Numbered from the stretch's first letter, positions 4,595 through 57,322 are shown. The stretch is DNA of 64,000 nucleotides from an uncultured Gammaproteobacteria bacterium (GCA_964639595.1 CAZXEC010000001.1:326903-390902); one strand, 5' to 3'. The notes: generated by a model not told the origin, from the letters alone. A program made the numbers and translations.

Positions 4595-5473
4595 CTATTT
4601 CTTATACAATTTAGGTTTGTAGCCGATCGATACGGTTTGCAGGCTGAAGAATCTCATCAGACTGGAATGGTCAAGCAAGGTTGCAATAAAAACAAGAGGC
4701 CGAACAATCGCATTATCCCAAATAAACCTGTAAATACCGTAGATATTTTTCCATTCCATAAAAAGATCCATATATCTAACCAGACGGGGGAAAATGATCA
4801 TTCCAGTTATTTTAATATTAACAAATCCGGCATTTTCCAACCATTTCTTTTGCTCCCAAGGGAAAAAAGACGGTTCATAACTAGTAACATTTTTCAAAAC
4901 TCTGTTAAAAAGCTCATTAATAAAATATGCCAACCACATATCTAATTTGTTATTAACTCCACTGATAAAAATACCTCCTGGTGTTAAGACCCTGAATGCT
5001 TCTTTCACTGCCTGTTCATTTTCCCTAATATGCTCGATAGTACCATAGCTAAAAACAATATCGAAATAATTGTCCGGAAATGGTAACTGGCGGACATCAC
5101 CTATCAAAAATTTAGCAGTGTCGGTTTTCGATCTAAAGTTCCTTTTGGCTAGTCTGATTACTGCCGGTGAAATGTCTATTCCGTAGTAATCACATCCTTG
5201 TGATAAAAACCAATCTGCCAGTGTAGTTGTACTCATGGCTTCATTGTAAAGATCATATTTTAGGACTTTGAGGCCTGTTTTATGTGGTAGGTAAATTTTA
5301 AGTAACCTTACAATTGATTGGACGAAATATAAATCAGATAGGGTTGGTTTGGTGATGTGTTTATGGGGGCTATTTTTGACAACCTCATCCCATCTTTTGG
5401 CCAGTGTCCTATTAACCTCGTCCCAGTTATTGAAAAAATCTGACTTATTGTAGGTGCCTGTTTTTTTTGTCAT
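4595..5473 (-). CDS. Class I SAM-dependent methyltransferase
   Basis: Motif I is DYYGIDISPAVIRLAK, and the later LTPGGIFIS matches the Methyltransf_11/25 pattern. Confidence 0.7.
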   Translation of the reverse strand: MTKKTGTYNKSDFFNNWDEVNRTLAKRWDEVVKNSPHKHITKPTLSDLYFVQSIVRLLKIYLPHKTGLKVLKYDLYNEAMSTTTLADWFLSQGCDYYGIDISPAVIRLAKRNFRSKTDTAKFLIGDVRQLPFPDNYFDIVFSYGTIEHIRENEQAVKEAFRVLTPGGIFISGVNNKLDMWLAYFINELFNRVLKNVTSYEPSFFPWEQKKWLENAGFVNIKITGMIIFPRLVRYMDLFMEWKNIYGIYRFIWDNAIVRPLVFIATLLDHSSLMRFFSLQTVSIGYKPKLYKK

Positions 5474-5480
5474 GAGGGTA

Positions 5481-6791
5481 TTATAGTAAGAGCTTGTTCA
5501 GCAGATCGTTTGGTGTTTCGGCTTGCCTGATGATTTTTATTTGTTGATTGGAGCTGACGAAAACCACAACTGGTCTAAGAATTGTAAACTGGTTTGAACG
5601 TGTTAGAGAATAAGCCCCGGCATCTAAAACTAAAACTATATCTCCCACTGCCATTTCGGGTAATTTCTGATCTGTTGCCAAAACATCGGCAGTATTGAGT
5701 GTGGGCCCGGCGATGTTGTAGCGACGGGTAGGTTTTCGATGGGCTTTATTGGCAATAATAAATCCCCGCCTAATAAAAAATATACTCTCTGGTACCAAAT
5801 TAATTCCACCATCTATAAAAATCCAATCCTTTTTGACAGCCACTACTCGAGTTACCAAGATGCCAGTATCAGAAACTAAAAATCTTCCCGGTTCCAACAC
5901 TAACTCTATTTCAGGTAGGTGATAATTATTGAGCATTTCCCTGAATTTAGTTCCGATTTTTTTACCAAATTCTTCAATCGACGGGGCTTTACTGTATTGA
6001 GATATTCCAGCCTTGTTCAAGATGATATTTTGCAGTGAATAATAATTAAGGCTCTGTAATCCGTATCCGCCGCCGATATTGATAGTTTTAATACTAAGTC
6101 CTAACTGGTCTCTAAGTCTGGCTGCTAAGGTAACTAATCTTTCGATGGACTTTTGGTAGTAGGATGGATCGGTAATCATTGAGCCAATATGGCTGGAGAT
6201 AGCCATCGGTTGCACATGAGAATAGGAAAGAGCCTTGCTATAAGCATCAACCGCTTGGGAAATGGGAATTCCGAATTTACTGATATAACCCTCGATAAAG
6301 CTTTTTAATATTGACATTTTTAACTCTGGATAAATTCTAAAGCTGATGTTGACCTTAATGTCTAATTTTTGGGCAATTTTGGCAACTCTTGCCAAAAGAT
6401 CTAAAGAGTCCACATTAAAAACTGCAACTCCTTTTTTAATGCAGAAGGCAATTTCCTGATCGTTCCAAGCCGGGCCATCAATAATCAATTCAGAAGCATC
6501 AAAGCCTGCTTTTTGAGCAAGGAGTACCTCTAGTGCCGAAGCTATTTCTCCTCTGCTGCCTTGGGATCTGAGAGTCTTGAGTATTTGAGGTTCAAAATTA
6601 GTTTTTACCGAATAGTAGATGCTAGTTTTTCTGTAATATTTTTGGAAAGCGGCAGATAGTGCGTGGTAATTATCAATTAATCTTTTTTCGCTAAACAAAA
6701 AAAATGGAGTACCGAATTTCTTGATCAGCTTGTCTAGCGGAACGCCATCGAATTTAACCTTATCCTGCACCAAATTAACACCGCTGATCAT
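5481..6791 (-). CDS. Fold-type III PLP-dependent decarboxylase (Orn/DAP/Arg decarboxylase family), substrate unknown
   Basis: N-terminal TPFFLFSEKRL resembles TPLYVYD. The PLP-lysine motif YYSVKTN, the Gly-rich NIGGGYG and the C-terminal LEPGRFLV are all present. Confidence 0.75.
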   Translation of the reverse strand: MISGVNLVQDKVKFDGVPLDKLIKKFGTPFFLFSEKRLIDNYHALSAAFQKYYRKTSIYYSVKTNFEPQILKTLRSQGSRGEIASALEVLLAQKAGFDASELIIDGPAWNDQEIAFCIKKGVAVFNVDSLDLLARVAKIAQKLDIKVNISFRIYPELKMSILKSFIEGYISKFGIPISQAVDAYSKALSYSHVQPMAISSHIGSMITDPSYYQKSIERLVTLAARLRDQLGLSIKTINIGGGYGLQSLNYYSLQNIILNKAGISQYSKAPSIEEFGKKIGTKFREMLNNYHLPEIELVLEPGRFLVSDTGILVTRVVAVKKDWIFIDGGINLVPESIFFIRRGFIIANKAHRKPTRRYNIAGPTLNTADVLATDQKLPEMAVGDIVLVLDAGAYSLTRSNQFTILRPVVVFVSSNQQIKIIRQAETPNDLLNKLLL

Positions 6792-6805
6792 AGAATGGTA
6801 TTATA

Positions 6806-7795
6806 TCAGCTCGTTTTTAAGTAAGCAATCAAACTTTTTATGCCCTGGGCATAATTAACCTTGGGTGAAAAGTTAAGCTCCTTGGTTGCTTTGGTGATAT
6901 CGTAGTTCCAATTGTTGGCAATGGTTTTGACTTTCATGACCGTAATTGGTGGCTCCCGATAAAACAATTTAGGCCATAATCGGTGGCCTTGTAGATAAAT
7001 AAACTCAATAATATATGCAGCCAGGAGTGCAATCCTCTTGGGAATGTTCAGTGGCGAATAGTCGCTTCCTAACTCCCTGGCAATTATCTCTGCCAGTGAT
7101 TTAATCTGAATAGGTTTTGCCCCAGCTATGATATATATTTGGTTTACCCCTGCTTGTTTGATGACATGCAAAAAAGCTTCCACTAGGTCATCAATATAGA
7201 TCAAATGCAGTAGGTTACACCCATTGCCAATGATAAAAAATTGCCTCTTTCTTATCAGGTTGACCATTTTCATCACCATTCCTGTTTTATTATCACCTGG
7301 TCCGTAGACGATGCATGGTCTGATGATAGTAAATGGTATATGGTATTTTTGGTAAAGTTGTCTGCAAGTTTCCTCCAATTTTATTTTGGAAATTCCATAA
7401 ATGTCCGTTGCCGCCAGAGGATGTTTTTCATCAGCCGGCAAATATTGTAGATCTCCCATTGCATATACAGAACTGGTGATAATCAGGTGCTCAAGTTGGG
7501 AATTTTGGGTAATGATTTTTAGTAAAGACTGACTGTTGGTCGATGGTATTTTGCCATCAGGATCCCATGGTGATCTTTCTGCAGCTAGATGAATCAATAT
7601 CTGGCAAGAATTGAGATTTTTGATGAAAGTTTGCGGTCGATTAATATCACCAGTGATTATTTTTACACCCTTGGCTAACATATTACTTGCCAAAGGGTGC
7701 CTGGCTAGGACAGAAATTTCGTAGCCTTCTTGAGTTAGCCTTTTGATTAGATGTTGCCCGATAAAGCCTGTCGCACCTGTAATAAATATTCTCAT
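6806..7795 (-). CDS. NAD-dependent epimerase/dehydratase (extended SDR family)
   Basis: MRIFITGATGFIGQHL Rossmann motif. The start is set at the internal Met; the track ORF extends 12 codons further to 7831. It does not look like gmd. Confidence 0.7.
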   Translation of the reverse strand: MRIFITGATGFIGQHLIKRLTQEGYEISVLARHPLASNMLAKGVKIITGDINRPQTFIKNLNSCQILIHLAAERSPWDPDGKIPSTNSQSLLKIITQNSQLEHLIITSSVYAMGDLQYLPADEKHPLAATDIYGISKIKLEETCRQLYQKYHIPFTIIRPCIVYGPGDNKTGMVMKMVNLIRKRQFFIIGNGCNLLHLIYIDDLVEAFLHVIKQAGVNQIYIIAGAKPIQIKSLAEIIARELGSDYSPLNIPKRIALLAAYIIEFIYLQGHRLWPKLFYREPPITVMKVKTIANNWNYDITKATKELNFSPKVNYAQGIKSLIAYLKTS

Positions 7796-7875
7796 AGAAA
7801 GGATCGGATAAACAGACGGTAGCATAGACAACTGTCACAAGCAAGTCAATCTGTTGTAAAATGTCTTAAAATAAG

Positions 7876-10029
7876 ATGTTTGGTAAACAAGCAAAACTCG
7901 CGTCTGGTAATCTGGCTTTGGTTATAATACTATTTTTGGCCGCCCTGGTGAGGTTTTACGGCCTTTTTCCCAATACTCTTCTTCATCCTGATGAACCGCA
8001 TTTGCTCGCGTCAGGACAGAAAATTGCCAAAAATGTTTTAACTAATTTTGATTTCTCTGCCGATGTCTCGCAGTATCCTTATAAATACGGTTCCTCCATG
8101 TATTATCTGCATGGTGCGCTGCAGACAGGTGCGTTATTAGGTATTTATGCTTTGCATTCCTTGTTGCCTCATTTGTTGGAAAATTTTCCGCAAAAATCAG
8201 ATCTTTTGACTTTCTTGACTGACACAGGACTATATAATTACCAAAATTTGCTTTTGACCGAATCGCGGCTGGTGACCGCTTTATTTGGTATAGGAACAGT
8301 GCTGTTGACTTTTTTGATCGGCAGGAGATTATTTGGCTATCCAGTGGGTATTCTGGCTGCGCTTATATTAACATTTGCACCACTGCATGTACGAGATTCC
8401 CACTATGCCACCGTTGATATTCCGCAATTATTTTTCATTCTCTTATCAGTATTTTGGCTAATTAAAGTTTTTCAGACAGGTAAAACTAGATTCTATTTAT
8501 TGGCAGGCTTGACCATTGGTTTTGCCACTTCTTTGAAGTATTTCCCCATTGCTGTGTTGCTTTACCCCTTGGCGCATTTTTTGGGTGCTGGCCGGCAAAA
8601 ATTATTAGACCAAAAATTTTGGCTGGGATGGGCTATGATGCCCATTGGTTTTTTGGTCAGTTCACCTACTCTACCTTTCCATTTTGGAGATTTTTTGAAT
8701 ACCCTCATTATTAGCAGTCAATGGTATGCCCCAGGGGTGGTTTCTGCCAAAATCCACTGGTGGCAGTTTTTCATTCCCCCTTATGTTCATCCTTTTCATT
8801 GGTCATTTGTATTTTTTATCGGATTTGGGGTGATGCCAACATTGTTGGCTATTTGGGGATTTATTATTGCTTGGAAACAGCATCCCCGACCGATGCTTTT
8901 CTTATCAGTAGTGCCGGTTGTTAATTTTATCTTCATCACTTTTTATCTTAAAGAAATTTATGAAAGATTATCTTTGCCCAGCCTGCCATTTTTAGCATTA
9001 TTTGCCGGTTATGGCTTATGGCAGCTGGTGCGATGCGTCAAGCCGGACAAGTTGAAAGCGGTGGTATTAACGATGACACTGGGAGTTGTTTTGTTTTATC
9101 CGGCTCAAGAATCGATCTCTGCCAGCTGGGCTTGTTCTCAGGAGATTACCGATTATCAAGCCCGGGATTGGATCAAGGATAATATCGCACCGGGATCTAC
9201 TTTTGGTTTTTCTCCGGGTATGCGCATTCCAGAAACTGGTACCAAGCCAGTCAGAATGGATGTGACATCGATGTTCTCTTGGCCAGAAGCAGAGGAAGCA
9301 GGTGTGAATTTGGTGTTTTTTAATTCCGGTTATTATAATTATTATCAGTATTGGGCGCTTGATTATTTTAGTCGTCCAGAAGATCTTCTTGCCAACAGTT
9401 TTGTGGGAGCGGCACTTCGCCAGTATCAAACACAATCCCAGCTGGTTAAAAAATTTGTCAAGCCTTACACCTGCATGGGTAATGATATTTACGCCTATAG
9501 GCTGGCAAAACTTTTACAGCCCGGCAGTCGCCATTTGATTTATCAAGACTCTTGGGAAAAAAGCAGCCAGGAATGGCGGTTGGTGGAATTTCCTGTTTTT
9601 GGTCAACAACAAGCTCTTTTGAGTACCAATTCTAATGATTTAGTGTTTACTTGGCAACGTGGCGCTGACAAGATGTGGGAAAAGAATAGCTATCCCACGC
9701 CGCGAGCAGTGGTTGGCCCCTTCCCGGTTACACCGGGCAAGATGTATTTTTTACAAGCTCGACTGTCATCAGGTAAAGAAATTCCTAAAGAAAAACGTGA
9801 TGGCTTCTTTAGAATAGATTTCTATAAACAGCGAAGTATTGGTAACAAGCCAGGTTTTGATGTTGCTTTATCTGGGCGCTATTGGGGTCAGGGAGAAAAA
9901 ACTGTCCAAACCCAAGCAGTTGCTCCACCTGGCGCTGTTTTTGCCACCCTGTCTTTTCAGACAACAATGGTAGAAGAAAAAGGTGATTTTCGCATAAGCC
10001 AAGTGCAATTTTTCCAAATGGAAGACTAA
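7876..10029 (+). CDS. GT-C membrane glycosyltransferase (PMT_2/ArnT-like) with a C-terminal CBM-like beta-sandwich domain
   Basis: LHPDEPHLL acidic loop motif, HVRDSHYATVDIPQLFF, and more than 10 TM helices. The ~200 aa C-terminus (WVK..FFRIDFYKQ..ATLSF..QVQFF) resembles a CBM4/9-type domain. Paralog of 10807..12996. Confidence 0.6.
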   Translation: MFGKQAKLASGNLALVIILFLAALVRFYGLFPNTLLHPDEPHLLASGQKIAKNVLTNFDFSADVSQYPYKYGSSMYYLHGALQTGALLGIYALHSLLPHLLENFPQKSDLLTFLTDTGLYNYQNLLLTESRLVTALFGIGTVLLTFLIGRRLFGYPVGILAALILTFAPLHVRDSHYATVDIPQLFFILLSVFWLIKVFQTGKTRFYLLAGLTIGFATSLKYFPIAVLLYPLAHFLGAGRQKLLDQKFWLGWAMMPIGFLVSSPTLPFHFGDFLNTLIISSQWYAPGVVSAKIHWWQFFIPPYVHPFHWSFVFFIGFGVMPTLLAIWGFIIAWKQHPRPMLFLSVVPVVNFIFITFYLKEIYERLSLPSLPFLALFAGYGLWQLVRCVKPDKLKAVVLTMTLGVVLFYPAQESISASWACSQEITDYQARDWIKDNIAPGSTFGFSPGMRIPETGTKPVRMDVTSMFSWPEAEEAGVNLVFFNSGYYNYYQYWALDYFSRPEDLLANSFVGAALRQYQTQSQLVKKFVKPYTCMGNDIYAYRLAKLLQPGSRHLIYQDSWEKSSQEWRLVEFPVFGQQQALLSTNSNDLVFTWQRGADKMWEKNSYPTPRAVVGPFPVTPGKMYFLQARLSSGKEIPKEKRDGFFRIDFYKQRSIGNKPGFDVALSGRYWGQGEKTVQTQAVAPPGAVFATLSFQTTMVEEKGDFRISQVQFFQMED

Positions 10030-10778
10030 TGTCTAATAAACTTGCAGTTTACGATCGAAATCAACATGAACAGGAGTTTTTTGATCAGCTGGCAAAAGAT
10101 AATTGTGAATACTGGGGTTGCCAAACAAAGGCCGGTTGCTATCGGATGGAGATGAGAGCGCAACTGGCCCAGCGATTCTTGGGGTTGTGTCCGGGGATGA
10201 AAATATTGGATCTAGGGTGCGGGTTAGGCGCCTTTACTCAATATTTGTTACCGTATGCTGCCACCATCTATGCTATTGATATTTCCTCTGCCACCATCGC
10301 CCAAGTTAAGATGAGAATTTCATCACTGAATGTTATCTTTTCTGTCCAAGATGCCCATCACTTAAGCTTTGCAGATAATTTTTTTGATGCGGTGGTAGGG
10401 AATGCGACCCTGCATCATCTGGATTTATCTTGCGCTTTGCTAGAAATTCAGCGAGTGGTCAAACCGCATGGTCAGATATTTTTTACCGAGCCAAATATGG
10501 CAAATCCACAAAATTGGCTTGAGAGACATGTTAGATTTATTGGTAAACTCATGCGCAACTCGCCGGATGAAACTGCTTTTTATCGCTGGCAATTGAAAAA
10601 AAAATTGAAGGCGGCAGGTTTTATCAATGTATCAGCTGAACCATTTGATTTTATCTATCCGGCGATCCCTGAAGCCTGGATTGGTCCGGTAAAAAAGATG
10701 TCGGATTTCTTAGAGAAAATTCCTTTGTTGAGAGAAATTGCCGGTTCACTGTTGATAACCGGACAAAAAGAGCGGTAA
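10029..10778 (+). CDS. Class I SAM-dependent methyltransferase
   Basis: ILDLGCGLGAF motif I and VKPHGQIFFTEPN. Confidence 0.75.
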   Translation: MSNKLAVYDRNQHEQEFFDQLAKDNCEYWGCQTKAGCYRMEMRAQLAQRFLGLCPGMKILDLGCGLGAFTQYLLPYAATIYAIDISSATIAQVKMRISSLNVIFSVQDAHHLSFADNFFDAVVGNATLHHLDLSCALLEIQRVVKPHGQIFFTEPNMANPQNWLERHVRFIGKLMRNSPDETAFYRWQLKKKLKAAGFINVSAEPFDFIYPAIPEAWIGPVKKMSDFLEKIPLLREIAGSLLITGQKER

Positions 10779-12996: not shown

Positions 12997-13002
12997 AGAC
13001 TA

Positions 13003-14856: not shown

Positions 14857-15910
<1,054 letters not shown>

Positions 15911-41569: not shown

Positions 41570-42233
41570 ATAGGATTTTTACATATAGCGATCAAATCTA
41601 TGGCTTGAGAGGTTTTGGTATTGATGGAATAATCATTCTCGCCAATATGATAAGTTTTGTTACCCTTATGAAGAATACTGCGTGTTAAATATGTTACAAT
41701 ATCACCAGCAAATTGCCTGATTGGCCGGGGTAGTAATTTCCTCAAGTTGAAGATGTCGCCTTTGAGTATTTTCAACACCATCTTTTTCCTGGCTTCTCCA
41801 TAAGTTGTAACTGTGGCATTCCCCCAAAGGCCATAAATAAACACCTCTTGAAAAAAGGCAGAAAGGAGCTGATACCATTCATCTGGTGTATATTCCTTGT
41901 AATGATAAGGATTTTCATTATAAGATTGGGTAATAGCGTTAGGTGTGGAGAAAATAGCCACACCATTTTTTGTAAGAGAGACCTCACTTTATCAAAAAAT
42001 ACTTGTGCATTGGGGAAATGCTCTATTGTTTGTAGGGCAATTATTACTTCAAATAGCGTATCAAAACTGCTTTGAATAAATTCCCACCATTCAAATTGTA
42101 AATTACCAGGTTGTCCTTTAAGACGCTTTGCTGCCTTGATAGCCAGTTGGGTAAAAGTGGGCATCAGAGCAGTATTATTGATGTCGGTTCTTTCCGCACT
42201 GATAGTGTAAAAAAATTGTTCAGGCCCAAGCAT
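41566..42233 (-). pseudogene. Frameshifted, 5'-truncated remnant of a class I SAM methyltransferase
   Basis: Two overlapping minus-strand ORFs sit in different frames (41772..42233 and 41566..41961). The upstream one carries FDTLFEVIIALQTIEHFPNAQVFFDKV, matching the post-motif-II region of an MTase. The downstream frame continues with TKNGVAIFSTPN (GG-like). No GxGxG motif I is present and there is no room for one upstream. Confidence 0.45.
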
Positions 42234-42315
42234 GTTAGGAGAATTATAGCATAGAGATGTTTTGCAGGTTTGAAAAATGTTAGCTGTGATGGTAGATTAG
42301 GTGATAGCTACTAGG

Positions 42316-48105: not shown

Positions 48106-48138
48106 CCATGTTGGATGTATTAATTGACCATAGAAAAT

Positions 48139-51100
48139 ATGAGAAAAGTTTTTAATCAAATCAGAAGATTTTGGGAGCTGGTTATCGTTTTTCTTTTCGG
48201 ACTGACGCCCGTTTTATGGTACAAGGGTGAAAGCTTGATCAATGGCGTTGATACTAATTTCCCCCTTGATCCTCTATCGTGGTGGCAAAGACGGTTTTTT
48301 GTCTGGGATGATACATTATATGGCGGGTCTGACTGGTCTTCTAATTTGGCTGGCATCTTCTTTCATGGTCTGCAAGTATTCTTTTATGAGGTGATCAGAT
48401 TTTCCCTGCAAAATACTGAAAAAGCCACCACTGTTTTCTGGTTTACCCTAATTTGTTTATCTATTTATATTCTTTTCAGAACTTTTCAAAAATCCCATTC
48501 TGGTCTTGTCAGAATTGTTCCGGTCGCCTTGTATGCCTATAATGTTTATTTATTTAACACTTGGGAAAATATTAAAGTTACTAATTTATCATTGATGGCA
48601 GCCCTGCCTCTGGCTCTTGCCGTAGTCAACCTATTTTTCAAAAACAGACTGTCGTTAATTGTTTGCCTGGTGCTACTTGGCGGAATATCGCTCATAGGTT
48701 CTGGAATGGGGATTAATCCTGCCTATCTGGCAGTATATTTGTCAACGTTAGTTGCCTTTGGCGTTTATATGGCTTTGGCAAACCACTATCAGAAGAGATG
48801 GGTGGTTGCATATGCAGCCATGTTTGTAGCAGCCGTATTAATAATTAATGCCTATTGGATTTTACCGCTCACCTTTAATCTGTTTGGTTGGGGGGGGACA
48901 CCGTTGCTTTCAGAGATAGGCCAGATTAATGCTGTGGATTGGATAGATGGACTGTCAGCTCACACTTCAATTTTTAATTTATTCAGGTTGTTGGGGGCAT
49001 GGGATTGGTATGGAGAAAGCTCGCCTGGCGTGCCGTATATACCTTATGCTTATAATTATTTCTCCAACCCAGTTTTTATATTTTTTGGCATCCTTATACC
49101 AATTTTGGGATTTTCATCTCTGCTGTTTTCAAGGCTAAGACGGGAAATAGTGTTTTTCAATCTGCTAGTATTAATCGGACTGTTTTTGTCAGCTGGAACC
49201 CATCCCCCAACTGGCAGATTTTTTAAAGTCTTATTAGATGCAGTGCCCTTCTTCTCATTTTTTAGGAGTCCTTGGTATATCTTTACTCCCATAGTTCTTT
49301 TGGGCTTGGCCATGTCGATTGGTTTACTTTTTGATCAACTTCTATATACGGCTAAGGGCAAATTTTGGCAGTGGAGACTGATTAAGCTTCCCCAAAGAAT
49401 AGCTTTATCTTTATTGATGTTGGTTTTTGTAATCTTTAATGTTTTATATTGCTATCCTTTGGTTAGCGGTGAGGTTTTTCGAGCCGGGACTCCGGGAAGT
49501 GTGCTAGTTAACATTCCCAATTATGTACTGGACACTCGAGATTTTTTGAATAGTCTTCCCAAAGACAAACGGATCATTTCTCTGCCATATACAACAAGTG
49601 AACATTTCAATTGGGAATATAAGGGGATCGCTTCCATATTAAATTTGCTCGCTCCTGTTAACGTGCTGACTTATAATTTTGCCAGTGCCAAAAATGACGC
49701 CATAGGCATACTGACTGATGAACTTTATAGAGCTATCCACTTTGGTGAAGTAGAAAATATTAAAAAACTGGCAGGACCGTTAAATGTGGAGTATTTGTAC
49801 AACAAAAATGATACCACTGACTTTGACAGTTCACCTCTATCACATCAAGTAGCCCAACAGATAGCAGATGCACCATTGCCTGCCAGTTTTGGTTTGTGGG
49901 ATTTTTGGAAGATTAAAGATCAATTTGTCTGGCCAAGGATTTTTGTTCCATCAAAAACAATATTTTCAGCAGAAGACGATGTTGGGCTGGTGAAAGATCT
50001 CTTGAGCATGACTGATGGATATCAGCCAAAACTTATCGCAAAAAGTAAATTAGACAAGCTAGCCAATGGCTGGATTAAGGCTTACCGTCAAGATGAGAGA
50101 ATAAGCTATTTATCACCAGATTTTAAAAATCGGGGGGTTTTTGAATATAGTAATTTGGAATTTAATCAAAATTTGGCAGTTTTTGATGTTAAGGTACCCA
50201 GAGATGGTCAATATCAACTCTATGTGGAGAAAGACCAGTTGGGAAGCTATGGCCTAGGATCGGGAAAACCCTGGGATATAATAATAGATAAGTATACCCT
50301 CTTAGAGAAGATGTATAAACTTAAAGTAGAAAAGTCAGATGTTAGATTTTTAGCACTGGAAAAATTTTTTCTATCAGAAGGTGGGCATACGATATCGATT
50401 AATCTGCCCAATAATTTCAATTATTTTGAAAATTATAAATTCGAAAGAATTGTCTTATCAACTGGTGAACTGGTTGGCCAATCAAAGGAAGAGTTTGAAA
50501 AGATGCCTTTTGCTAAGGTCAATTTAACGGTACGCTTAGGTGTTAGCCTTCCTGATATTAATTCAAAATCAATGTATCAAATTAGTTTGTTTGACCCAAC
50601 CCAGACAGCCTTGTCACGGGTGGTGATTGTTTCACAACAAATTCCCGAAAGAAATGTCATGTACTATCAGGTATCTACCAAGGACTATATCAGTTGGCCT
50701 TATACCAGACTCGTGATCAGACCGCTTTATTATCCGTCTATCTTAAATGTTGCTATTGATGATAATGGTAACAATATGCAATTTTTATCAAATCCAGCCA
50801 AAGAAATACAAGTGCATAGGATATTCACGAATAGCGTGATTTTAAAACCTGTCGGTGATGAATTGACAACGTCGCATGACTTGCCCCAAAATCCGCAAGT
50901 TAAATATGAGAAGCTGTCTCCAACTAAATATTTGGTGTCTATTGATAACGTTGACAGAAATACACCATTGGTTCTACAAGATAAGTTTTCACCGTCCTGG
51001 AAAGTCTACAGGAATGACGACAATGGCTATAATCTTTGGGCAACATGGGGCAAAAAGCCGATTTTGGAGAATAACCACCAGATTGCTAATGGTTACGGCA

Positions 51101-51267
51101 ATGTGTGGTGGCTACAAACCCCGGGATCATATGATTTAATCATAGAATATTGGCCACAAAGGCTTTTCTATCTGGGTTTCTTCATCAGTACATTAGTTTT
51201 TATTTTAGGATGTCTGATTGTTATCAGAGCAATTTTAATTACTAAATATGGCAGACAACTGGACTAA
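48139..51267 (+). CDS. Giant YfhO/AftD-like GT-C membrane protein; paralog B2
   Basis: INGVDTNFPLDP N-motif. The C-terminal block reads FSPSWKVYRNDDNG...HQIANGYGNVWWLQTPGSYDLIIEYWP..(TM). The start is set at the ATG 15 nt inside the listed TTG. Confidence 0.6.
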   Translation: MRKVFNQIRRFWELVIVFLFGLTPVLWYKGESLINGVDTNFPLDPLSWWQRRFFVWDDTLYGGSDWSSNLAGIFFHGLQVFFYEVIRFSLQNTEKATTVFWFTLICLSIYILFRTFQKSHSGLVRIVPVALYAYNVYLFNTWENIKVTNLSLMAALPLALAVVNLFFKNRLSLIVCLVLLGGISLIGSGMGINPAYLAVYLSTLVAFGVYMALANHYQKRWVVAYAAMFVAAVLIINAYWILPLTFNLFGWGGTPLLSEIGQINAVDWIDGLSAHTSIFNLFRLLGAWDWYGESSPGVPYIPYAYNYFSNPVFIFFGILIPILGFSSLLFSRLRREIVFFNLLVLIGLFLSAGTHPPTGRFFKVLLDAVPFFSFFRSPWYIFTPIVLLGLAMSIGLLFDQLLYTAKGKFWQWRLIKLPQRIALSLLMLVFVIFNVLYCYPLVSGEVFRAGTPGSVLVNIPNYVLDTRDFLNSLPKDKRIISLPYTTSEHFNWEYKGIASILNLLAPVNVLTYNFASAKNDAIGILTDELYRAIHFGEVENIKKLAGPLNVEYLYNKNDTTDFDSSPLSHQVAQQIADAPLPASFGLWDFWKIKDQFVWPRIFVPSKTIFSAEDDVGLVKDLLSMTDGYQPKLIAKSKLDKLANGWIKAYRQDERISYLSPDFKNRGVFEYSNLEFNQNLAVFDVKVPRDGQYQLYVEKDQLGSYGLGSGKPWDIIIDKYTLLEKMYKLKVEKSDVRFLALEKFFLSEGGHTISINLPNNFNYFENYKFERIVLSTGELVGQSKEEFEKMPFAKVNLTVRLGVSLPDINSKSMYQISLFDPTQTALSRVVIVSQQIPERNVMYYQVSTKDYISWPYTRLVIRPLYYPSILNVAIDDNGNNMQFLSNPAKEIQVHRIFTNSVILKPVGDELTTSHDLPQNPQVKYEKLSPTKYLVSIDNVDRNTPLVLQDKFSPSWKVYRNDDNGYNLWATWGKKPILENNHQIANGYGNVWWLQTPGSYDLIIEYWPQRLFYLGFFISTLVFILGCLIVIRAILITKYGRQLD

Positions 51268-51607: not shown

Positions 51608-51770
51608 ACTAGCCAATTTTTGCCTACTGGTCAGTTTCACATTATTGCTGGTGGCTTTTGCATCTATTCTTGGCAACCATCCAGGATTTGCTAATCAGGT
51701 AGTTGAGAAAAGCTATCTAGTTTTATTAAGTGCTATTGTGTTGAAGTTTGCATTAAATTTTTTGTTATGA
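51597..51770 (+). CDS. Unlisted small two-helix hydrophobic ORF (~57 aa), translationally coupled on both sides
   Basis: The ATG overlaps the TAG of the upstream gene (ATGCTAAATAG). The product MLNRLANFCLLVSFTLLLVAFASILG...YLVLLSAIVLKFALNFLL ends in a TGA that overlaps the B3 start (TTATGA). It falls below the ORF-track length cutoff. Coordinates are approximate (±3). Confidence 0.3.
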   Translation: MLNRLANFCLLVSFTLLLVAFASILGNHPGFANQVVEKSYLVLLSAIVLKFALNFLL

Positions 51771-54439
51771 AGCTATCAGGCCAAAGTGCTGCTATTTCAT
51801 TACTGGCGATATTGTCCATTTTGGTGTTTCATAGTTTTTTGACTACTAACCCTTTATCTTTTGGTGATGCACCCTTTTTTACCCAACTCAATTTGAAAGA
51901 GTTTTTCAATCCACCCATTAGTTGGGGTGCCAGAAATGAGAATTTCGGTGGGTTTGAAGCGGCCCGTTTATGGATTTATCCGCTACTGGTGCTGTCAAGC
52001 CTTTTTGGGATGCTGAATTTGGATAGCACTATTGCCATCAGGATAATTTTTTATATTCCGGCTGTGGGTTTCGCGCTGTATGGATCTTGGTTGTTATCAG
52101 GTGTGTTTGTCAGTCAAATGTGGGCTAAATTCGCAGTTGCCACGTTTTATACTATTAATACCTACTTTTTATTATTAATTGACGGCGGGCAAGTCGGAGT
52201 GGCTTTGGCTTATGGCGTATTCCCCTTGGCGGTGTTCACTTTATTTTATACAGCAAAAAGCTGGACCGTAACAGGTAATCTATTGGCGATTATCGCCTGG
52301 TCTTTGGTGACAGCAGCTGATTTGAGAGCATCTGTTTTATTGCCGATTGTGGCGATTTTGATTTGTTTGGTAAAAAACACTTCTTACCTAACAAGAACTA
52401 TTTTGGTTATCTTAGCATCAGGGATGGTAGTTATGCTGCTCAATTCATATTGGCTGCTGGCTCTATTTTTTACTAATTCAGGTATTCCTGCCCAAGATGT
52501 TGTTTCGCCTGCTCAGATTGCTGCTGTCAGCTTTACTAAACTAGCAAATTCATATCTGGTGCTTCAACCACACTGGTTTATTAATGAATTTGGTCAAATC
52601 ACACCTGTTCTGCCCAGTTTTTTGATTATACCGGCAGTAGCATTTTGGGGACTTTTTTACAAAAATCGGCAGACCATGCTTTTATCTTTTATCGCAATAG
52701 CATTTATTTTTTTGGCCAAAGGAGCCAACGATCCAGCGGGTAATTGGTATTTATGGATGTTTGATCGTATTCCCGGTTTTGGCATATTCCGTGATTCAAC
52801 TAAATTTTTTGTAGCGGAAATGATCTTTTACTCATTGCTTTTGGGGGTCAGTTTAGAACGACTCATAGTCAGTAAAAGTAAAATGCTGCTGGTTGTTATT
52901 GTGTTGTTGGCTGTCTATTTTGCCGGCATCATCTTCCCAGTTATAACCAACCAACTAAGTGGTAATTTGGGCCCAGGTGTCTATCCTGAATCATATCACC
53001 AACTTCAGCAATACCAAGCAGATGATGATTTTTACCGTCTGCTCTATTTTCCTTCCAAACCGTCTTATGCGCCAGAAAGTTTAGATCATCCTGCTTTATG
53101 GGCCAATTCCCTGTATCTTAAACGCCCATTCGGTATTCTTATTGATGGAGTTTATGATAAATTTTATTTTTTGCACCAGCCATTCTTTAAACAACTCTTG
53201 GATTTATCGGGCGTCAAGTATGTTTTCTTTGCGCCTGATCCGTATCGCAAGATTTGGACTGGTCAGAAGGTTGCCGAAAGACAGCAATTCCTGGATTTTG
53301 TTGACACTCTCACTTTGGGTAGGAAGATTGAATTCGACGACTACCCGATTTATCAGACTCAACGTCATTCTCCTCATTTTTTTGCTGCTGACCAGGCTTT
53401 AGCTATTTTAGGCGGCGATGATTTTTATTTCTGGATATCTAAACTGGCAGATTTCCGCCTGTCTAATGTTCCCATTTTGTTTTTGGAAGATGGCCAAACA
53501 ACGACAGCTGATCTGGAGAGAATAAACCCCGATTCTTTGAAATTGATATTTTGGTCCAAATCAGCACCAGACCTCACGTTTTCATTAATACCCAAAGATC
53601 ACCTGACCAGTTTATCAGATAATTATTTTTCTCAATGGGCTCACCTTACTGCAAACCAAATTTTAGAATGGCGGGATACAGCCAATAAGCATGGTATTGT
53701 CAATTATGATTTCAATTTTGGTAAGGGGATTGCCTGGTCTGATATTCGCGATCAGGTGATAAAACTCAAAATTAATGCAACAGATCCTGGACGATATAAA
53801 TTGTACGCCAGAGCTCTATCGGCAACAGATAGCGCCAGTTTGTCATTCCAGTTGGATAACTATTACCCGACAACTATAGAGACCACACCTGCTCGTTTTT
53901 CCTGGTATGATTTAGGCGAGTACAACTTGAATCAAGGACACCATGATATCCAAATCAAAAATAGTGGTGGTTTCTGGGCTGTCAACAGTTTGATTTTAAT
54001 TGATAAGCAAACTTTTGATCAACTGGAGCAACAAGCTAAAGTATTGACAGAAAAATTCCCACCCATTTACCTGGATAGTACTTCTCCTATCCAGACCTTG
54101 TCCAATTTGATCCGCTATCAACCTTTTGTCAGTCCCCCCTATAAGACTCAAAACCCGGCTACTTATCAGGTTCAAGTTGATAATCTTGACGCTCCCTACT
54201 GGCTAATCTTTACAGATTCATATAACGATGGTTGGCAGGCAAGATATTCCAACAATACTAGCCCAAGTTTGCCGTTTTATAGCTTTATCAACGGATTTTA
54301 TATCGATCAAAATTCAGATAGCGCAACCATAGATTTTGCGCCTCAAAAATGGACTAATATTGGGACTGGTGTTGCTACTGCTACATTGATTATGGCACTT
54401 GGGTTATTATTGTATTTGATCAGGCAGAGGGAAAAATAA
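51767..54439 (+). CDS. Giant YfhO/AftD-like GT-C membrane protein; paralog B3
   Basis: About 12 TM helices. The C-terminal block reads YWLIFTDSYNDGWQARYSNN...FINGFYIDQNSDSATIDFAPQ..(TM). Confidence 0.6.
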   Translation: MKLSGQSAAISLLAILSILVFHSFLTTNPLSFGDAPFFTQLNLKEFFNPPISWGARNENFGGFEAARLWIYPLLVLSSLFGMLNLDSTIAIRIIFYIPAVGFALYGSWLLSGVFVSQMWAKFAVATFYTINTYFLLLIDGGQVGVALAYGVFPLAVFTLFYTAKSWTVTGNLLAIIAWSLVTAADLRASVLLPIVAILICLVKNTSYLTRTILVILASGMVVMLLNSYWLLALFFTNSGIPAQDVVSPAQIAAVSFTKLANSYLVLQPHWFINEFGQITPVLPSFLIIPAVAFWGLFYKNRQTMLLSFIAIAFIFLAKGANDPAGNWYLWMFDRIPGFGIFRDSTKFFVAEMIFYSLLLGVSLERLIVSKSKMLLVVIVLLAVYFAGIIFPVITNQLSGNLGPGVYPESYHQLQQYQADDDFYRLLYFPSKPSYAPESLDHPALWANSLYLKRPFGILIDGVYDKFYFLHQPFFKQLLDLSGVKYVFFAPDPYRKIWTGQKVAERQQFLDFVDTLTLGRKIEFDDYPIYQTQRHSPHFFAADQALAILGGDDFYFWISKLADFRLSNVPILFLEDGQTTTADLERINPDSLKLIFWSKSAPDLTFSLIPKDHLTSLSDNYFSQWAHLTANQILEWRDTANKHGIVNYDFNFGKGIAWSDIRDQVIKLKINATDPGRYKLYARALSATDSASLSFQLDNYYPTTIETTPARFSWYDLGEYNLNQGHHDIQIKNSGGFWAVNSLILIDKQTFDQLEQQAKVLTEKFPPIYLDSTSPIQTLSNLIRYQPFVSPPYKTQNPATYQVQVDNLDAPYWLIFTDSYNDGWQARYSNNTSPSLPFYSFINGFYIDQNSDSATIDFAPQKWTNIGTGVATATLIMALGLLLYLIRQREK

Positions 54440-54442
54440 ACC

Positions 54443-55696
54443 ATGGATAGCATATGGAACTTAGTCAAACTATTATCTTCAACAACTGCCAGGCATACTT
54501 TTTATACTTTGACCGGTAACAGCGCCAACGTATTGGCGGTTTTAATTTTCACTAAAATTGCCACATCGCAACTATCGATCTCTGATTATGGTACGCTTGC
54601 TGTTTGTTTGGCGCTGTTTACCCTTTTTTTAGATGTCTTTGATTTAGGATTGTCAACTGCTGTCGTGAGACTGACTGCTGCCAATAGAGGTAATCAGCTG
54701 GGGCTGGTCAACCTTGTTGCCTCCGGCGGCCTGCTGCGGATATTATCTGGCACCTTACTTTTTATATTTGCACTAGTCAGCGCCAGATATTTTGCTGCTA
54801 TCCTGCTGCATGATGAAGCCAAGTCATATTTAATAGTTTTAGCTGCATTAGGGGCAGTAGCACTACTGTGGCAGAATTTTATTGCCAGTATTCTGCAGGG
54901 GCTGGAGCAGTTTTTAAAAAACAGCTTATTGGCAGTTGCCCTTGGTTCAACTAGGCTATTGGGCCTGTTGCTGTTGATTTTCTATTTACCTAGCGTATCG
55001 TTATTCGCAGCCATTTTTGTACTATCGCCTGTGGTACCTGCTGTTATTGGTATGTTCTTGTTGCCGCTTTTCCCGCTAATTGGTAAAGTAGATATTTCAG
55101 CAATTGGGTCAATCGTGAAATTCTCCCGTTGGATGATGTTGTTTGGTATTTTTGCGGCCATTGGATCCAGACTGGATATTCTAATGCTATCGTCAACGAT
55201 GTCAACTTACCAAGCAGGAGTGTACGGGGCGGCGGCCCGTTTGATTACTGTTTTTATCTTGATCACCACCAGTTTTGGCACGGTGTTAGTACCGCGTTTT
55301 TCTCGGATTACTGTTCTGGAACTGCCGGCCCTTATTAAAAAGACTATGCCGGGCGTTGGTGTATTAATTATATTGATGCTCATATCTATGATCTTGGCTC
55401 CTTTAGTTGTGCCCCTGTTTGTGACATACGGGCAGTCCATCCCAATTTTTCAACTGCTGGTTTTAGCCTACTTGCCGTTTGTTTTATCATTGCCAGCCAT
55501 GGCAGCCCTCTATACCTTAAATGCACCGCAGGTTATGGCATTGGTGGCGTTTTGCCAGTTGGTAATAGTAGTTTTTTTCAATTGGCTACTAATTCCGCCA
55601 TTGGCAGAAATTGGAGTTATCATCAGTTTAGGGATATCTCATCTGATGGCTCTAGTAATTGCCTGGACGTATATTATTATCAAGATAAAAGGCTGA
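54443..55696 (+). CDS. Wzx-like polysaccharide flippase (MOP/PST superfamily)
   Basis: 417 aa with about 12 TM helices. N-terminal ...TGNSANVLAVLIFTKIATSQLSISDYG... pattern and an internal repeat organisation. Confidence 0.65.
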   Translation: MDSIWNLVKLLSSTTARHTFYTLTGNSANVLAVLIFTKIATSQLSISDYGTLAVCLALFTLFLDVFDLGLSTAVVRLTAANRGNQLGLVNLVASGGLLRILSGTLLFIFALVSARYFAAILLHDEAKSYLIVLAALGAVALLWQNFIASILQGLEQFLKNSLLAVALGSTRLLGLLLLIFYLPSVSLFAAIFVLSPVVPAVIGMFLLPLFPLIGKVDISAIGSIVKFSRWMMLFGIFAAIGSRLDILMLSSTMSTYQAGVYGAAARLITVFILITTSFGTVLVPRFSRITVLELPALIKKTMPGVGVLIILMLISMILAPLVVPLFVTYGQSIPIFQLLVLAYLPFVLSLPAMAALYTLNAPQVMALVAFCQLVIVVFFNWLLIPPLAEIGVIISLGISHLMALVIAWTYIIIKIKG

Positions 55697-55697
55697 T

Positions 55698-56501
55698 ATG
55701 AAATTAGTTGCCCATTGTCTAGTTTGTAATGAAGAAAATTTTATTTGGTATGCGATACAATCTGTGATTGGGTTGGTAGATCAAGTTATAGTTTGGGATA
55801 CCGGGTCATCAGATCAAACCTGCCAGATAATTGAAAATATTCAAAATAGCAAAATTAAGTTTGCCCAAAAAGGCCAAGCCGACGCCAGAAGACTATCTAA
55901 TCTTAGGCAAGAGATGCTCGAGAGGACCAGTGCCGACTGGATTTGGATATTAGACGGTGATGAAATTTGGACACAACAAGGCTTATCAGAGGTCAAAAAT
56001 ATCATTGAAAATTATTCAGATAAATATTTTTTGATGGTACATCGGGCGAAAACATTAGTGGGGGATGTTTACCATTATTTGGGAGAAGACAGTGGACGTT
56101 ATCGCATTGCCCATGCTCAAGGCCATTTAAATATTAGACTGATCAATACCAAGATCGCTGGTCTCCATGTTGCTGGAGATTATCCCAATGAAGCCTATCA
56201 AGACAAAAACGGTCTCGCTATTCAAAATTTTCCGCCTGATCAGATTTATTTTGCAACTGTACCTTATTTCCATGCCAGTTTCCTGAAAAGGTCATCTGTC
56301 GATTGGCAGGCGGGTAAAAGAAAAATCAGGTATGAACTGGGAAATGAGCTGGCAAAAGACGATTTACCGGAAGTTTTTTGGCAACCTATTCCCGGTTTTA
56401 TTCCTGGGCCACCAAAAAGCAGGTCTTGGGAATTTATAGCCAAGTCGATCTTGGCAGCTCCGGCCAGGTTTATTAAAGGGCAGATAGGTAAAATAAGATG
56501 A
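55698..56501 (+). CDS. Glycosyltransferase family 2-like
   Basis: LVCNEENFI..VIVWDTGSSDQT and DGDE (DXD). Confidence 0.55.
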   Translation: MKLVAHCLVCNEENFIWYAIQSVIGLVDQVIVWDTGSSDQTCQIIENIQNSKIKFAQKGQADARRLSNLRQEMLERTSADWIWILDGDEIWTQQGLSEVKNIIENYSDKYFLMVHRAKTLVGDVYHYLGEDSGRYRIAHAQGHLNIRLINTKIAGLHVAGDYPNEAYQDKNGLAIQNFPPDQIYFATVPYFHASFLKRSSVDWQAGKRKIRYELGNELAKDDLPEVFWQPIPGFIPGPPKSRSWEFIAKSILAAPARFIKGQIGKIR

Positions 56502-57322
56502 AGACTTGTTTTATTTGCCAGGGTGAAAATTGGAAAAGTTTAGGTGTCAACCAAGGGAGACAAATTCTTCAATGTATAAAATGTGGCCTTGGGTCAACCA
56601 AGGGAGAATTTGTTGGGCTATATAAGCAGTACCACCGGGATAGTGCCTATCAGCAGTTTGAGGACCGCTTTATAAATATTTTTAATAAAAGGTATAATTT
56701 TGTCGCTAAATATAAAAAGGGCGGATCTGTTTTAGATGTTGGTTCATCTACAGGGACATTTTTGAAAATATTTCAAGAACATGGATGGCGCACCAAAGGA
56801 GTAGAGTCTTCGGAAAAAGCTTGTCAACTAGCTAGGTCAGCTGGGCTGGATGTTATCAACCAGGAATTTGAGCAAATTGATTTTGATCAAGATTTTGATG
56901 TAGTTTGCGCAAGTCACATCTTAGAGCATGTCGCAGATCCTGGGATATTTCTAGCTAAGGTGAAACAGATTCTTAAAATAGATGGCCTGCTGCTTTTGGA
57001 TCTACCCAATTTTAGCAGTTTGTCAGCTAGACTATTGGGTAGCAGGTGGTATTATATTTTACCGAATGAACATAGATGGCATTTTACAAAAAAAAGCCTT
57101 TCGATCCTGCTCGATCAAACAGGTTTTGAGATCTTAGAAGCCCGGACTGCTTCTGGGATCTTTGACTATGATAGCCCGTGGATGGAAATATGGCAGGCTG
57201 CAAGAACTTTCAAGAAAAGATTGCTTGGGGATGTTATAACTATCATGCCATCTTGGATAGTTACTATGCTTAATCTGGGCACGTCCTTGACAATAATAGC
57301 CAGAAAGAAGGCTAAAAGATGA
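56498..57322 (+). CDS. Class I SAM-dependent methyltransferase with an N-terminal Cys4 zinc ribbon
   Basis: CFICQG...CIKCG, then VLDVGSSTGTF motif I, and later LDLPNF. Confidence 0.7.
   Translation: MKTCFICQGENWKSLGVNQGRQILQCIKCGLGSTKGEFVGLYKQYHRDSAYQQFEDRFINIFNKRYNFVAKYKKGGSVLDVGSSTGTFLKIFQEHGWRTKGVESSEKACQLARSAGLDVINQEFEQIDFDQDFDVVCASHILEHVADPGIFLAKVKQILKIDGLLLLDLPNFSSLSARLLGSRWYYILPNEHRWHFTKKSLSILLDQTGFEILEARTASGIFDYDSPWMEIWQAARTFKKRLLGDVITIMPSWIVTMLNLGTSLTIIARKKAKR

Follow-up and report, generated by a model that had tools for sequence, protein, structure and literature searches.

Among the described systems in which S-adenosylmethionine (SAM)-dependent methyltransferases (MTases) work alongside glycosyltransferases (GTs), the methylmannose and methylglucose polysaccharides of mycobacteria (MMP and MGLP) are cytoplasmic polymers (PMC2674218), and in Haloferax, where N-glycosylation proceeds on dolichol phosphate, the SAM-dependent MTase AglP provides a precedent for an MTase in lipid-linked glycosylation (PMC3871713). 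The subject of this work is a 64,000-nucleotide (nt) stretch of DNA from an uncultured bacterium (GCA_964639595.1, CAZXEC010000001.1:326903-390902; hereinafter, the window), in which seven intact genes for class I MTases (MT1 to MT7) and a decayed eighth (MT8) are embedded in a large surface-glycan biosynthesis locus. The original prediction, made from the sequence alone, held that the density of MTases in this locus is exceptional and that their joint product is a heavily O-methylated glycan reminiscent of MMP and MGLP. On balance, it appears probable, although well short of certain, that the seven are anciently diverged MTase-fold genes, most of which tailor nucleoside diphosphate (NDP)-sugars or polyprenyl-phosphate-linked sugars prior to export, that their number is typical of the lineage, and that MT1 is a case apart.

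The seven intact genes are the following.

4595-5473, minus strand: MT1, 292 amino acids (aa), class I MTase fold, Pfam Methyltransf_11 (E-value 1.4e-22)
10029-10778, plus strand: MT2, 249 aa, canonical class I MTase, Pfam Methyltransf_11 (1.4e-22), motif ILDLGCGLG
17079-17837, plus strand: MT3, 252 aa, canonical class I MTase, Pfam Methyltransf_11 (2.4e-20), motif VLEIGCGYG
31305-31919, plus strand: MT4, 204 aa, canonical class I MTase by Pfam, motif IAELGAGEG
33240-34070, plus strand: MT5, 276 aa, canonical class I MTase by Pfam, one C-terminal hydrophobic segment
34067-34861, plus strand: MT6, 264 aa, canonical class I MTase, Pfam Methyltransf_25 (3.2e-20)
56498-57322, plus strand: MT7, 274 aa, zinc ribbon (CxxC-x18-CxxC) followed by Methyltransf_23 (2.6e-26), motif VLDVGSSTG

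All seven open reading frames (ORFs) are intact where they were first proposed and exceed the Pfam gathering scores of Methyltransf_11, 23, 25, 12 or 31 (53-93 bits compared with cutoffs of 21-30; E-values from 1e-18 to 3e-26). They are, as anticipated, small proteins (204-292 aa) without a nucleic acid-binding domain, and Pfam detects no further domain in any of them. The glycine-rich motif I (hh[D/E]xGxGxG) is present in MT2 to MT6, takes the form VLDVGSSTG in MT7 and is absent from MT1 (VLKYDLYNEA). None of the seven reaches a curated NCBIfam cutoff (UbiE/MenG, UbiG, BioC, CmoA/B, RlmA, PrmC and others), the best scores being 41-69 bits compared with cutoffs of 103-575, which argues against housekeeping MTases of rRNA, tRNA or ubiquinone. 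The identification of MT2 as NodS was considered and rejected: the broad Pfam NodS domain alone passes (35.6 bits versus 24), whereas the score for the NCBIfam NodS family is 37.7 bits versus a cutoff of 300.

The seven MTases share only 21-34% pairwise identity, confined to the Rossmann core, which excludes a recent duplication; they come from different sub-families. This applies to every pair, including the adjacent MT5 and MT6 (29.7% identity over 101 aa), for which a recent duplication was specifically rejected. In a sister species, represented by a 100.7-kb contig (Logan SRR22387912) with ∼78% nucleotide identity to the window, orthologs of MT4, MT5, MT6 and MT7 occupy the same positions and are 77%, 83%, 70% and 72% identical, respectively, which indicates that these are old, individually maintained genes.

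The role of the MTases can be gleaned mainly from their surroundings. In all cases, the neighbors on the same strand are GT or sugar-tailoring genes, with gaps of -35 to +51 nt, and therefore glycan tailoring is the natural reading. The MTases are distributed over at least five sub-operons. MT2 is flanked by two genes of the PMT_2 family (a 1-nt overlap with the upstream one, gap -1, and a gap of +28 nt downstream), and its homologs occur in the multi-MTase glycan loci L102 and L104. MT3 lies between a GT4 gene and a NodU/CmcH-type carbamoyltransferase gene (domains at 17834-19636), with gaps of +8 and -4 nt. MT4, MT5 and MT6 belong to a run of genes encoding GT2_c, MT4, GT2_d, a GNAT acetyltransferase, MT5, MT6 and two GT-C-like proteins with an F5/8-type-C domain, in which GT2_c and MT4 are separated by 1 nt and the ATGA overlap noticed earlier between MT5 and MT6 is real, at 34067-34070. 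The partner genes in this run are as follows.

30380-31303, plus strand: GT2_c, of the dolichol-phosphate mannose synthase (DPMS)/ArnC type with C-terminal transmembrane (TM) segments; phmmer matches in PDB to the Dol-P-Man synthase 5mlz (7e-12) and ArnC (1.6e-8)
31971-32678, plus strand: GT2_d, 235 aa; phmmer matches in PDB to 5mlz (8e-33, full length), ArnC (7e-17) and GtrB (3e-13); 92% identical in the sister species
32681-33274, plus strand: GNAT acetyltransferase of the MT5 cassette, Pfam Acetyltransf_10, _1 and _7
34865-37600 and 37597-40455, plus strand: two tandem proteins of ∼900-950 aa, each with a GT-C-like polytopic N-terminus, 7-11 TM-like segments and a discoidin domain (Pfam F5_F8_type_C)

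The best match of both GT2_c and GT2_d is 5mlz, the Pyrococcus dolichol-phosphate mannose synthase, followed by ArnC and GtrB, so that these two proteins are probable polyprenyl-phosphate sugar synthases, which would feed the GT-C enzymes. Functional coupling between the neighboring MTases and GT2s of the window is supported by single-polypeptide MTase-GT2 fusions of 473-491 aa in related contigs (L018:14182-15603, minus strand; L102:4494-5969, plus strand). Both MT5 and MT6 contain a single C-terminal hydrophobic segment in a TM scan, which is consistent with membrane association. The tandem F5/8-type-C proteins immediately downstream of MT6 are probable extracytoplasmic transferases: their N-terminal halves match the PMT_2 profile (probability 89.8%, E-value 1.8e-6) and contain an invariant DD motif (residues 79-80) in the first loop. 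This N-terminal domain has no match in Pfam or in a profile search of PDB. A third ∼900-aa paralog, with the same GT-C-like N-terminal half, DD motif and C-terminal domain, is located at 42301-44988 (plus strand), and the three share 31-45% identity (compared through the sister ortholog).

MT5, with 79 homologs, is the MTase of a cassette that consists of genes for DegT, a small GT2, GNAT, an MT5-family MTase and an F5/8-type-C GT-C-like protein. This cassette recurs in the sister locus (L014) and in three more distant contigs (L018, L020 and L021) with 50-60% MT5 identity, in one of them without GNAT. In those three contigs, MT6 is missing between MT5 and the gene for the GT-C-like protein, in agreement with the view, reached by sequence comparison, that MT6 (70% identical in the sister) is an accessory insertion rather than a recent duplicate of MT5. 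The F5/8-type-C family as such has kept its place beside MT5-type MTases in several contigs.

The substrates of these enzymes and the cytoplasmic timing of methylation are inferred from this arrangement. In the proposed scheme, SAM would be available only in the cytoplasm, and much of the assembly machinery, that is, about ten GT-C-like enzymes together with the Wzx flippase, would be extracytoplasmic. The MTases would work on the cytoplasmic side of the membrane, their substrates being nucleotide-sugars, or else sugars or oligosaccharides linked to polyprenyl phosphate, made by the adjoining DPMS/ArnC-like GT2s or by GT2 and GT4 enzymes, and the intermediates would then be flipped and transferred by the GT-C enzymes. 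With SAM confined to the cytoplasm, a methyl group on a residue added by a GT-C enzyme would have to be placed on the nucleotide-sugar or polyprenyl-phosphate-sugar before flipping. What would result is a number of residues or side branches that differ in their methylation, not a single polymethylated polymer. The single heavily O-methylated glycan of the original prediction is not borne out by the gene arrangement because MTases in at least five sub-operons could just as well decorate several residues or glycans in different ways as methylate one polymer heavily. The reading as glycan-tailoring rather than housekeeping enzymes stands in outline, on the evidence of both the family cutoffs and the gene context, whereas the specificity for oxygen does not; genes for amino sugars (encoding a PglF-like dehydratase and two DegT proteins) and GNAT are adjacent.

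Several considerations weigh against the tailoring scheme. The Methyltransf_11, 23 and 25 families also include enzymes that act on lipids, small molecules and proteins, and gene context is what alone ties the seven MTases to sugars; O-, N- and C-methylation cannot be told apart by sequence. The assignment of the F5/8-type-C proteins to GT-C comes from one profile-profile match (89.8%) and the DD motif, with no PDB sequence match. Furthermore, the comparison of MTase densities, discussed next, uses assumed background values for the window and comparators chosen for carrying an MTase, which inflates their apparent density.

The claim of exceptional density holds in one respect and fails in another. 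Under an assumed background of 0.5-3% MTases among all genes, the Poisson probability of observing seven or more among 47 genes is 6e-9 to 6e-4, so that the clustering is non-random. However, four related loci (L018, L021, L102 and L104) are as dense as the window (0.11 MTases per kb) or denser, with the reservation that these contigs were found through homologs of MT5 or MT2 and each therefore contains at least one MTase by construction.

L018: six MTase-domain genes in 20.8 kb, including an MTase-GT2 fusion and a C-methyltransferase-epimerase fusion
L021: six MTase-domain genes in 20.8 kb
L102 (Melainabacteria): four MTase-domain genes in 12.8 kb, and two B12-radical-SAM genes
L104: three MTase-domain genes in 12.8 kb
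L020: two MTase-domain genes in 20.8 kb
L006: one MTase-domain gene in 20.8 kb

The high MTase count is thus typical of the lineage rather than peculiar to this genome and is largely a matter of locus size. Glycan loci with several MTases are evidently widespread among these uncultivated groundwater lineages, and the count alone should not be over-read.

The complement of MTases is itself in flux, as exemplified by MT8 and its partner gene.

41566-42233, minus strand: MT8, decayed class I MTase, delineated by tblastn of the intact sister ortholog against the region
40463-41569, minus strand: GT2_e, family-2 GT (Pfam), co-transcribed with and overlapping MT8

The decayed copy that had been suspected here was confirmed against an intact 267-aa sister ortholog (L014:18214-19017), which overlaps the GT2_e ortholog in the same pairing. 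In Pfam, the region yields a sub-threshold match to Methyltransf_12 (19.8 bits versus a cutoff of 30). Two lesions are apparent. An in-frame deletion of 45 codons (135 nt) takes out motif I (VLEIGCGAGYGT) along with the region of motif II, and the reading frame is shifted near codon 133. Over the C-terminal half, identity to the sister protein remains 81%. Two independent assemblies (SRR12113383 and SRR12113384) cover the whole pseudogene with 100% identity, which, together with the combination of a 135-nt deletion and a frameshift, rules out an assembly artifact. The comparison with the sister and the identity across the two assemblies indicate that the decay is real and recent. The MT2 homologs do not include an ortholog from the 100.7-kb sister contig, the next best match being 63% identical and located on another contig. 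Taken together, the loss of MT8, the patchy presence of MT6 and the lack of a match from the sister contig among the MT2 homologs imply turnover, which suggests that the MTase complement varies between close relatives in a manner resembling serotype-like variation.

With regard to the chemistry of methylation, there is a serious possibility, although we would put it below even, that at least one of MT2 to MT7 methylates nitrogen or carbon, rather than oxygen, in amino- or keto-sugar nucleotides. This alternative overlaps with the tailoring scheme and differs from it only in the bond that is made. Its plausibility stems from the PglF-like 4,6-dehydratase, the two DegT aminotransferases and GNAT in the locus, from the MT5 cassette that begins with DegT in the relatives, from full-length Methyltransf_13/23/14 C-methyltransferase genes in the related loci L018, L019 and L021 and from MT7. 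The genes that precede MT7 are given here.

54443-56501, plus strand: Wzx-type flippase (54443-55696) and GT2_f, the latter overlapping MT7 by 4 nt; Pfam Polysacc_synt and Glycos_transf_2

The MT7 operon encodes Wzx, GT2_f, MT7, a polytopic membrane protein and a GT4. The zinc ribbon fused to MT7, which had been singled out at the outset, is genuine: the protein starts with CFICQ...CIKCG, a conserved CxxC...CxxC arrangement. In the displayed homolog alignment, from which the counts were read and in which one of the nine rows is a fragment starting after C4, C26 and C29 are present in 9/9 rows, C4 in 8/8 and C7 in 7/8 of the covering rows. In the AlphaFold2 (AF2) model (pLDDT 90.7), residues 12-35 form a small three-stranded beta unit in front of the Rossmann domain. 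The best full-length folds are the NDP-sugar C3-methyltransferases MtmC, KijD1 and TcaB9 (TMq 0.60-0.67 over ∼310 columns), a proximity that supports a carbohydrate substrate, and sugar C-methyltransferases are matched in PDB by sequence as well (E-value 7.5e-7). Sequence searches of PDB were made for MT1 and MT7; apart from these sugar enzymes, the matches are generic class I MTases and do not discriminate the substrate. MT7 shares with TcaB9, KijD1 and MtmC the N-terminal Cys4 zinc ribbon and the SAM domain, but those proteins are ∼410 aa long and possess a C-terminal Methyltransf_14 (PF08484) domain, which binds the NDP-sugar, as known from structures of the TcaB9 family, whereas MT7, at 274 aa, has a hydrophobic C-terminal helix instead. 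In a Pfam search of MT7, neither PF08421 (Methyltransf_13) nor PF08484 is matched at E ≤ 0.01, and without the C-terminal Methyltransf_14 domain MT7 is not a member of that family. These absences count against N- or C-methylation, as does GNAT, which would cap the amine.

MT1 should be set apart from generic sugar O-methyltransferases. Its motif I is replaced by VLKYDLYNEA, compared with hhDxGxGxG in the other MTases, and the Pfam match begins at profile position 10. An exhaustive HMMER search yields 562 representatives (at 50% identity) with E ≤ 1e-10. In an alignment of 16 members with 29-55% identity, L71, K72, D74 and E78 are invariant, and N77 and T82 are nearly so, whereas the downstream motifs GIDIS, GDxRxLPF and FDxVFSxGTIEH are retained. 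An LKxDhxNE-type motif was found in 80 metagenome loci. In the window, MT1 belongs to a cassette with the following genes.

5481-6791, minus strand: pyridoxal phosphate (PLP)-dependent decarboxylase of the LysA/ODC fold, Pfam Orn_Arg_deC_N and Orn_DAP_Arg_deC; NCBIfam lysA 277.5 bits versus a cutoff of 297.9
6806-7831, minus strand: short-chain dehydrogenase/reductase (SDR) family epimerase/reductase, HpnA-like, Pfam Epimerase (5.6e-36)
2933-4588, minus strand: GT-C-like polytopic membrane protein, 551 aa, ∼11 TM segments, YSDD motif; hhalign match to PMT_2 (probability 98.5%, E-value 2.6e-15)

The linkage with the decarboxylase is conserved: among 50 loci whose upstream sequence was long enough, 40 encode a LysA/ODC-fold enzyme no more than ∼1.4 kb from the MT1-like gene, on the same strand in 38 of these 40, and 28 of 34 MT1-type loci have both the decarboxylase and the SDR. 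The MT1-like gene is often followed, as it is in the window, by a gene for a 540-680-aa polytopic membrane protein or a PMT_2 GT-C. In addition, MT1-like domains are fused to an N-terminal exosortase, to a C-terminal SpeH-type AdoMet decarboxylase (P0174, P0175 and P0177) and to an HpnA-like SDR (P0189); the homologs that carry fusions are P0174, P0175, P0177, P0182, P0187 and P0189. The conserved motif, linkage and fusions place MT1 in a conserved, uncharacterized module in which a decarboxylase, an SDR and an MTase fold devoid of the glycine loop are combined, with a GT-C protein encoded downstream. The probable task of MT1 is to alter or add a substituent that bears an amine, not to O-methylate a sugar.

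What MT1 does in such a module can be envisaged in more than one way. It is possible, albeit rather doubtful, that MT1 is an N-methyltransferase of the amine produced by the adjacent PLP decarboxylase, the methylated amine being attached by downstream GT-C-linked machinery. The AF2 model of MT1 (pLDDT 92.3) has phosphoethanolamine N-methyltransferases as its nearest PDB folds (TM-score ∼0.5), followed by generic small-molecule MTases; the same enzymes are numerous among its top sequence neighbors, the decarboxylase linkage is conserved, and the fused ‘AdoMet_dc' could be a pyruvoyl decarboxylase standing in for the PLP enzyme. The resemblance extends to the logic of a decarboxylase followed by an MTase. 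Nevertheless, the TM-scores are only ∼0.5, and phosphoethanolamine N-methyltransferases are over-represented in PDB; these enzymes retain the canonical glycine loop, whereas MT1 has no GxGxG; the partner decarboxylase of MT1 has the LysA/ODC fold rather than being of the serine decarboxylase type; and MT1 resides in a glycan locus with GT-C proteins.

A less probable option is that MT1 is an aminoalkyl (3-amino-3-carboxypropyl or aminopropyl) transferase that works with a LysA/CANSDC-like or fused AdoMet decarboxylase on a glycan or lipid-linked sugar. In place of the glycine loop, which touches SAM at its methionine end, there is the invariant LKxDhxNE with its conserved charged residues, a SpeH-type AdoMet decarboxylase is fused in the three proteins listed above, and the LysA fold, linked in 40 of 50 loci, acts on substrates of the type H2N-CH(COOH)-CH2CH2-X. 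Conversely, MT1 has no Pfam Spermine_synth match, no spermidine synthase is among its top 50 Foldseek matches in PDB, which are dominated by phosphoethanolamine N-methyltransferases, the window encodes no AdoMet decarboxylase, and no precedent was found in the literature. In its broader form, which we put forward just as tentatively and regard as improbable, the hypothesis is that the widespread MT1 subfamily, the LysA-type PLP decarboxylase (or the fused pyruvoyl AdoMet decarboxylase) and the SDR jointly equip a glycan or lipid-linked sugar with a substituent that bears an amine (aminopropyl-like or N-methylated), after which the GT-C protein exports it, and that the exosortase-fused members may supply the amine acceptor for PEP-CTERM anchoring. 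Searches of the literature on exosortases with an AdoMet decarboxylase and an MTase, and on the ‘acp' transfer onto polysaccharides, returned nothing relevant.

Two further proposals concern the MTase set as a whole or in part. The first, that all seven are sugar O-methyltransferases that jointly build one heavily O-methylated, MMP/MGLP-like polysaccharide, is what the presence of seven MTases, none of them a housekeeping equivalog, with many GTs in one locus would suggest at first sight, but it is quite unlikely to be correct: MMP and MGLP are made in the cytoplasm (PMC2674218), whereas the window has Wzx and about ten GT-C-like enzymes, the partners differ among the at least five sub-operons, MT1 lacks the canonical SAM loop and follows a decarboxylase cassette, amino-sugar genes lie beside several of the MTases, and the nearest folds of MT7 are C-methyltransferases. 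The second proposal is that at least one MTase is a WbdD-like capper that controls polymer length by terminating the chain, instead of decorating internal residues; MT7 does lie in a polymer-assembly operon. Terminal methylation indeed serves as a chain-length stop in the Escherichia coli O8/O9a antigens, through WbdD, and in the Geobacillus S-layer glycan. The window encodes no detectable kinase domain, coiled-coil or ABC transporter (Wzm/Wzt), and the MT7 operon has Wzx along with a probable polymerase-like membrane protein, which points to the Wzx/Wzy route, where terminal capping is not used; we thus hold capping to be improbable. Finally, the notion that the MTases are housekeeping or otherwise unrelated enzymes (quinone, biotin, rRNA/tRNA or lipid) that came to the locus by accident can be dismissed almost entirely because the weak UbiE, UbiG and BioC scores are far below the curated cutoffs, all seven genes abut GT or tailoring genes, their positions are conserved in the sister species and in Blackburnbacteria, and MTase-GT2 fusions exist. 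In its favor, some databases label homologs ‘UbiE'.

The glycan-tailoring scheme preferred here is set in a locus of considerable size and complexity. Proteins identical to MT7 and MT2 bear the NCBI name ‘Candidatus Daviesbacteria bacterium', that is, a member of the Candidate Phyla Radiation (CPR), Microgenomates, and the window DNA is identical or nearly identical to Candidatus Daviesbacteria assemblies, with identical DNA in GCA_016198195.1 and in several groundwater read sets. In GCA_016198195.1, the locus is split over two contigs (JACQJB010000007.1 and JACQJB010000011.1, the latter ending near window position ∼48465), so that the window represents the same population in a less fragmented assembly; among contigs with its proteins, the longest measures 458 kb. 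The closest species-representative genome with an MT7 homolog is a Candidatus Blackburnbacteria metagenome-assembled genome (L006), which keeps, at 30-49% identity, a block that consists of the 890-aa membrane protein, Wzx, GT2, MT7, a membrane protein, GT4, GT2 and PMT_2.

The locus spans at least ∼75 kb and extends beyond the window on both sides. Upstream (L016:1-9959 and window 68-670), there is a nucleotide-heptose pathway, with an HldE-like protein (PfkB and CTP_transf domains), a SIS (GmhA-like), a HAD (GmhB-like) and an NTP-transferase protein, which abuts the window, so that the glycan locus begins at least 8 kb before it. Genes for transaldolase and a split transketolase, which could supply sedoheptulose-7-phosphate, lie beside this pathway. 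Downstream (L001), there are two GT4s, a hexapeptide acetyltransferase and a GT2. Within the window, nearly all of the ∼47 genes with a family match are glycan-related according to Pfam and NCBIfam scans. The sugar-nucleotide genes encode a UDP-sugar dehydrogenase, a GFO/IDH oxidoreductase, the PglF-like dehydratase and the two DegT aminotransferases; the other tailoring genes encode two carbamoyltransferases, one GNAT and one AlgX-like protein; and those for transfer and export encode seven GT2s, three GT4s, one Wzx, four PMT_2 GT-Cs and one AftD-like GT-C.

The two carbamoyltransferases, both of the NodU/CmcH type, are encoded at 17834-19636 (plus strand, overlapping MT3 by 4 nt) and at 26597-28303 (minus strand), and from these O-carbamoylation of the glycan is predicted besides methylation; an MTase gene adjoins a carbamoyltransferase gene in L076 as well. 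The gene at 14894-15910 (plus strand), which had been labeled fcl, is doubtful under this name, as its product scores 285 bits against a cutoff of 500 for the NCBIfam GDP-L-fucose synthase and the window lacks gmd. The product may instead serve as the 3,5-epimerase/4-reductase of some other nucleotide-sugar, perhaps a heptose in view of the adjoining pathway.

Several large polytopic proteins of the window have no Pfam match. Polytopic membrane proteins are unusually numerous in general (2933-4588 on the minus strand; 45077-48046, 48124-51267, 51767-54439, 57319-58710 and 59737-61179 on the plus strand). The roughly ten GT-C-like proteins comprise the four PMT_2, the AftD-like protein, the 551-aa protein, the three F5/8-type-C proteins and two proteins of 989 and 890 aa with faint similarity to AftD, an abundance that recalls the assembly of mycobacterial arabinan and mannan. 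Two ORFs, at 13841-14785 (314 aa) and 28300-28626 (108 aa), both on the minus strand, have no Pfam match, and the former has no NCBIfam match either. No tRNA, tmRNA or Rfam family was detected at threshold within window positions 1-64000.

CPR bacteria generally have small genomes and a presumed lifestyle of attachment to host cells, and very little is known about their surfaces. In such an organism, a glycan locus that spans ∼75 kb or more predicts a chemically elaborate and variable surface, which could matter for host attachment and phage evasion. A search of the literature for glycan methylation in CPR bacteria returned nothing relevant. The set of MTases is ordinary overall, and the parts worth attention are the MT5 cassette, with its discoidin-bearing GT-C-like protein, and the MT1 subfamily. 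The latter, glycine-less, tightly linked to decarboxylases and in some cases fused to an exosortase, is a testable lead into an uncharacterized SAM-dependent modification.

Compared with known systems, the locus shares with MMP and MGLP the clustering of several sugar MTases with GTs, and this is where the analogy drawn in the original prediction ends. Those polymers are cytoplasmic and require neither a flippase nor GT-C enzymes, whereas the locus of the window, with Wzx at 54443-55696 and about ten GT-C-like genes, has a different topology and is built for export and extracytoplasmic assembly, so that the analogy is poor. The mycobacterial enzymes (MeT1/MeT3 and Rv3030/Rv3037c) are not in the PDB match lists of MT1 and MT7; no orthology comparison was made. 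Better analogies appear to be the tailoring MTases of O-antigen, capsule and S-layer gene clusters and the Arn and Gtr modules. Like the window, O-antigen, capsule and S-layer clusters and the AglP pathway are characterized by small class I MTases that are co-transcribed with GTs and act (in the window, most likely) on the cytoplasmic side before flipping, in the company of Wzx, GT2, GT4 and nucleotide-sugar genes; the window differs in having seven MTases of different sub-families, unusually many GT-C proteins and DPMS-like GT2s, and a CPR bacterium as its host. The counterpart of the Arn (ArnB/A/C/T) and Gtr (GtrA/B and a type-specific GT-C) modules would be the MT5 cassette, in which DegT, GNAT, a DPMS/ArnC/GtrB-like GT2 and a large GT-C-like transferase are combined. 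No GtrA or ArnE/F-type flippase was matched by Pfam among the window ORFs of at least 100 aa. The cassette of the window differs from both modules in that it alone includes an MTase (MT5, with or without MT6) and in that its GT-C-like protein bears a C-terminal discoidin domain.

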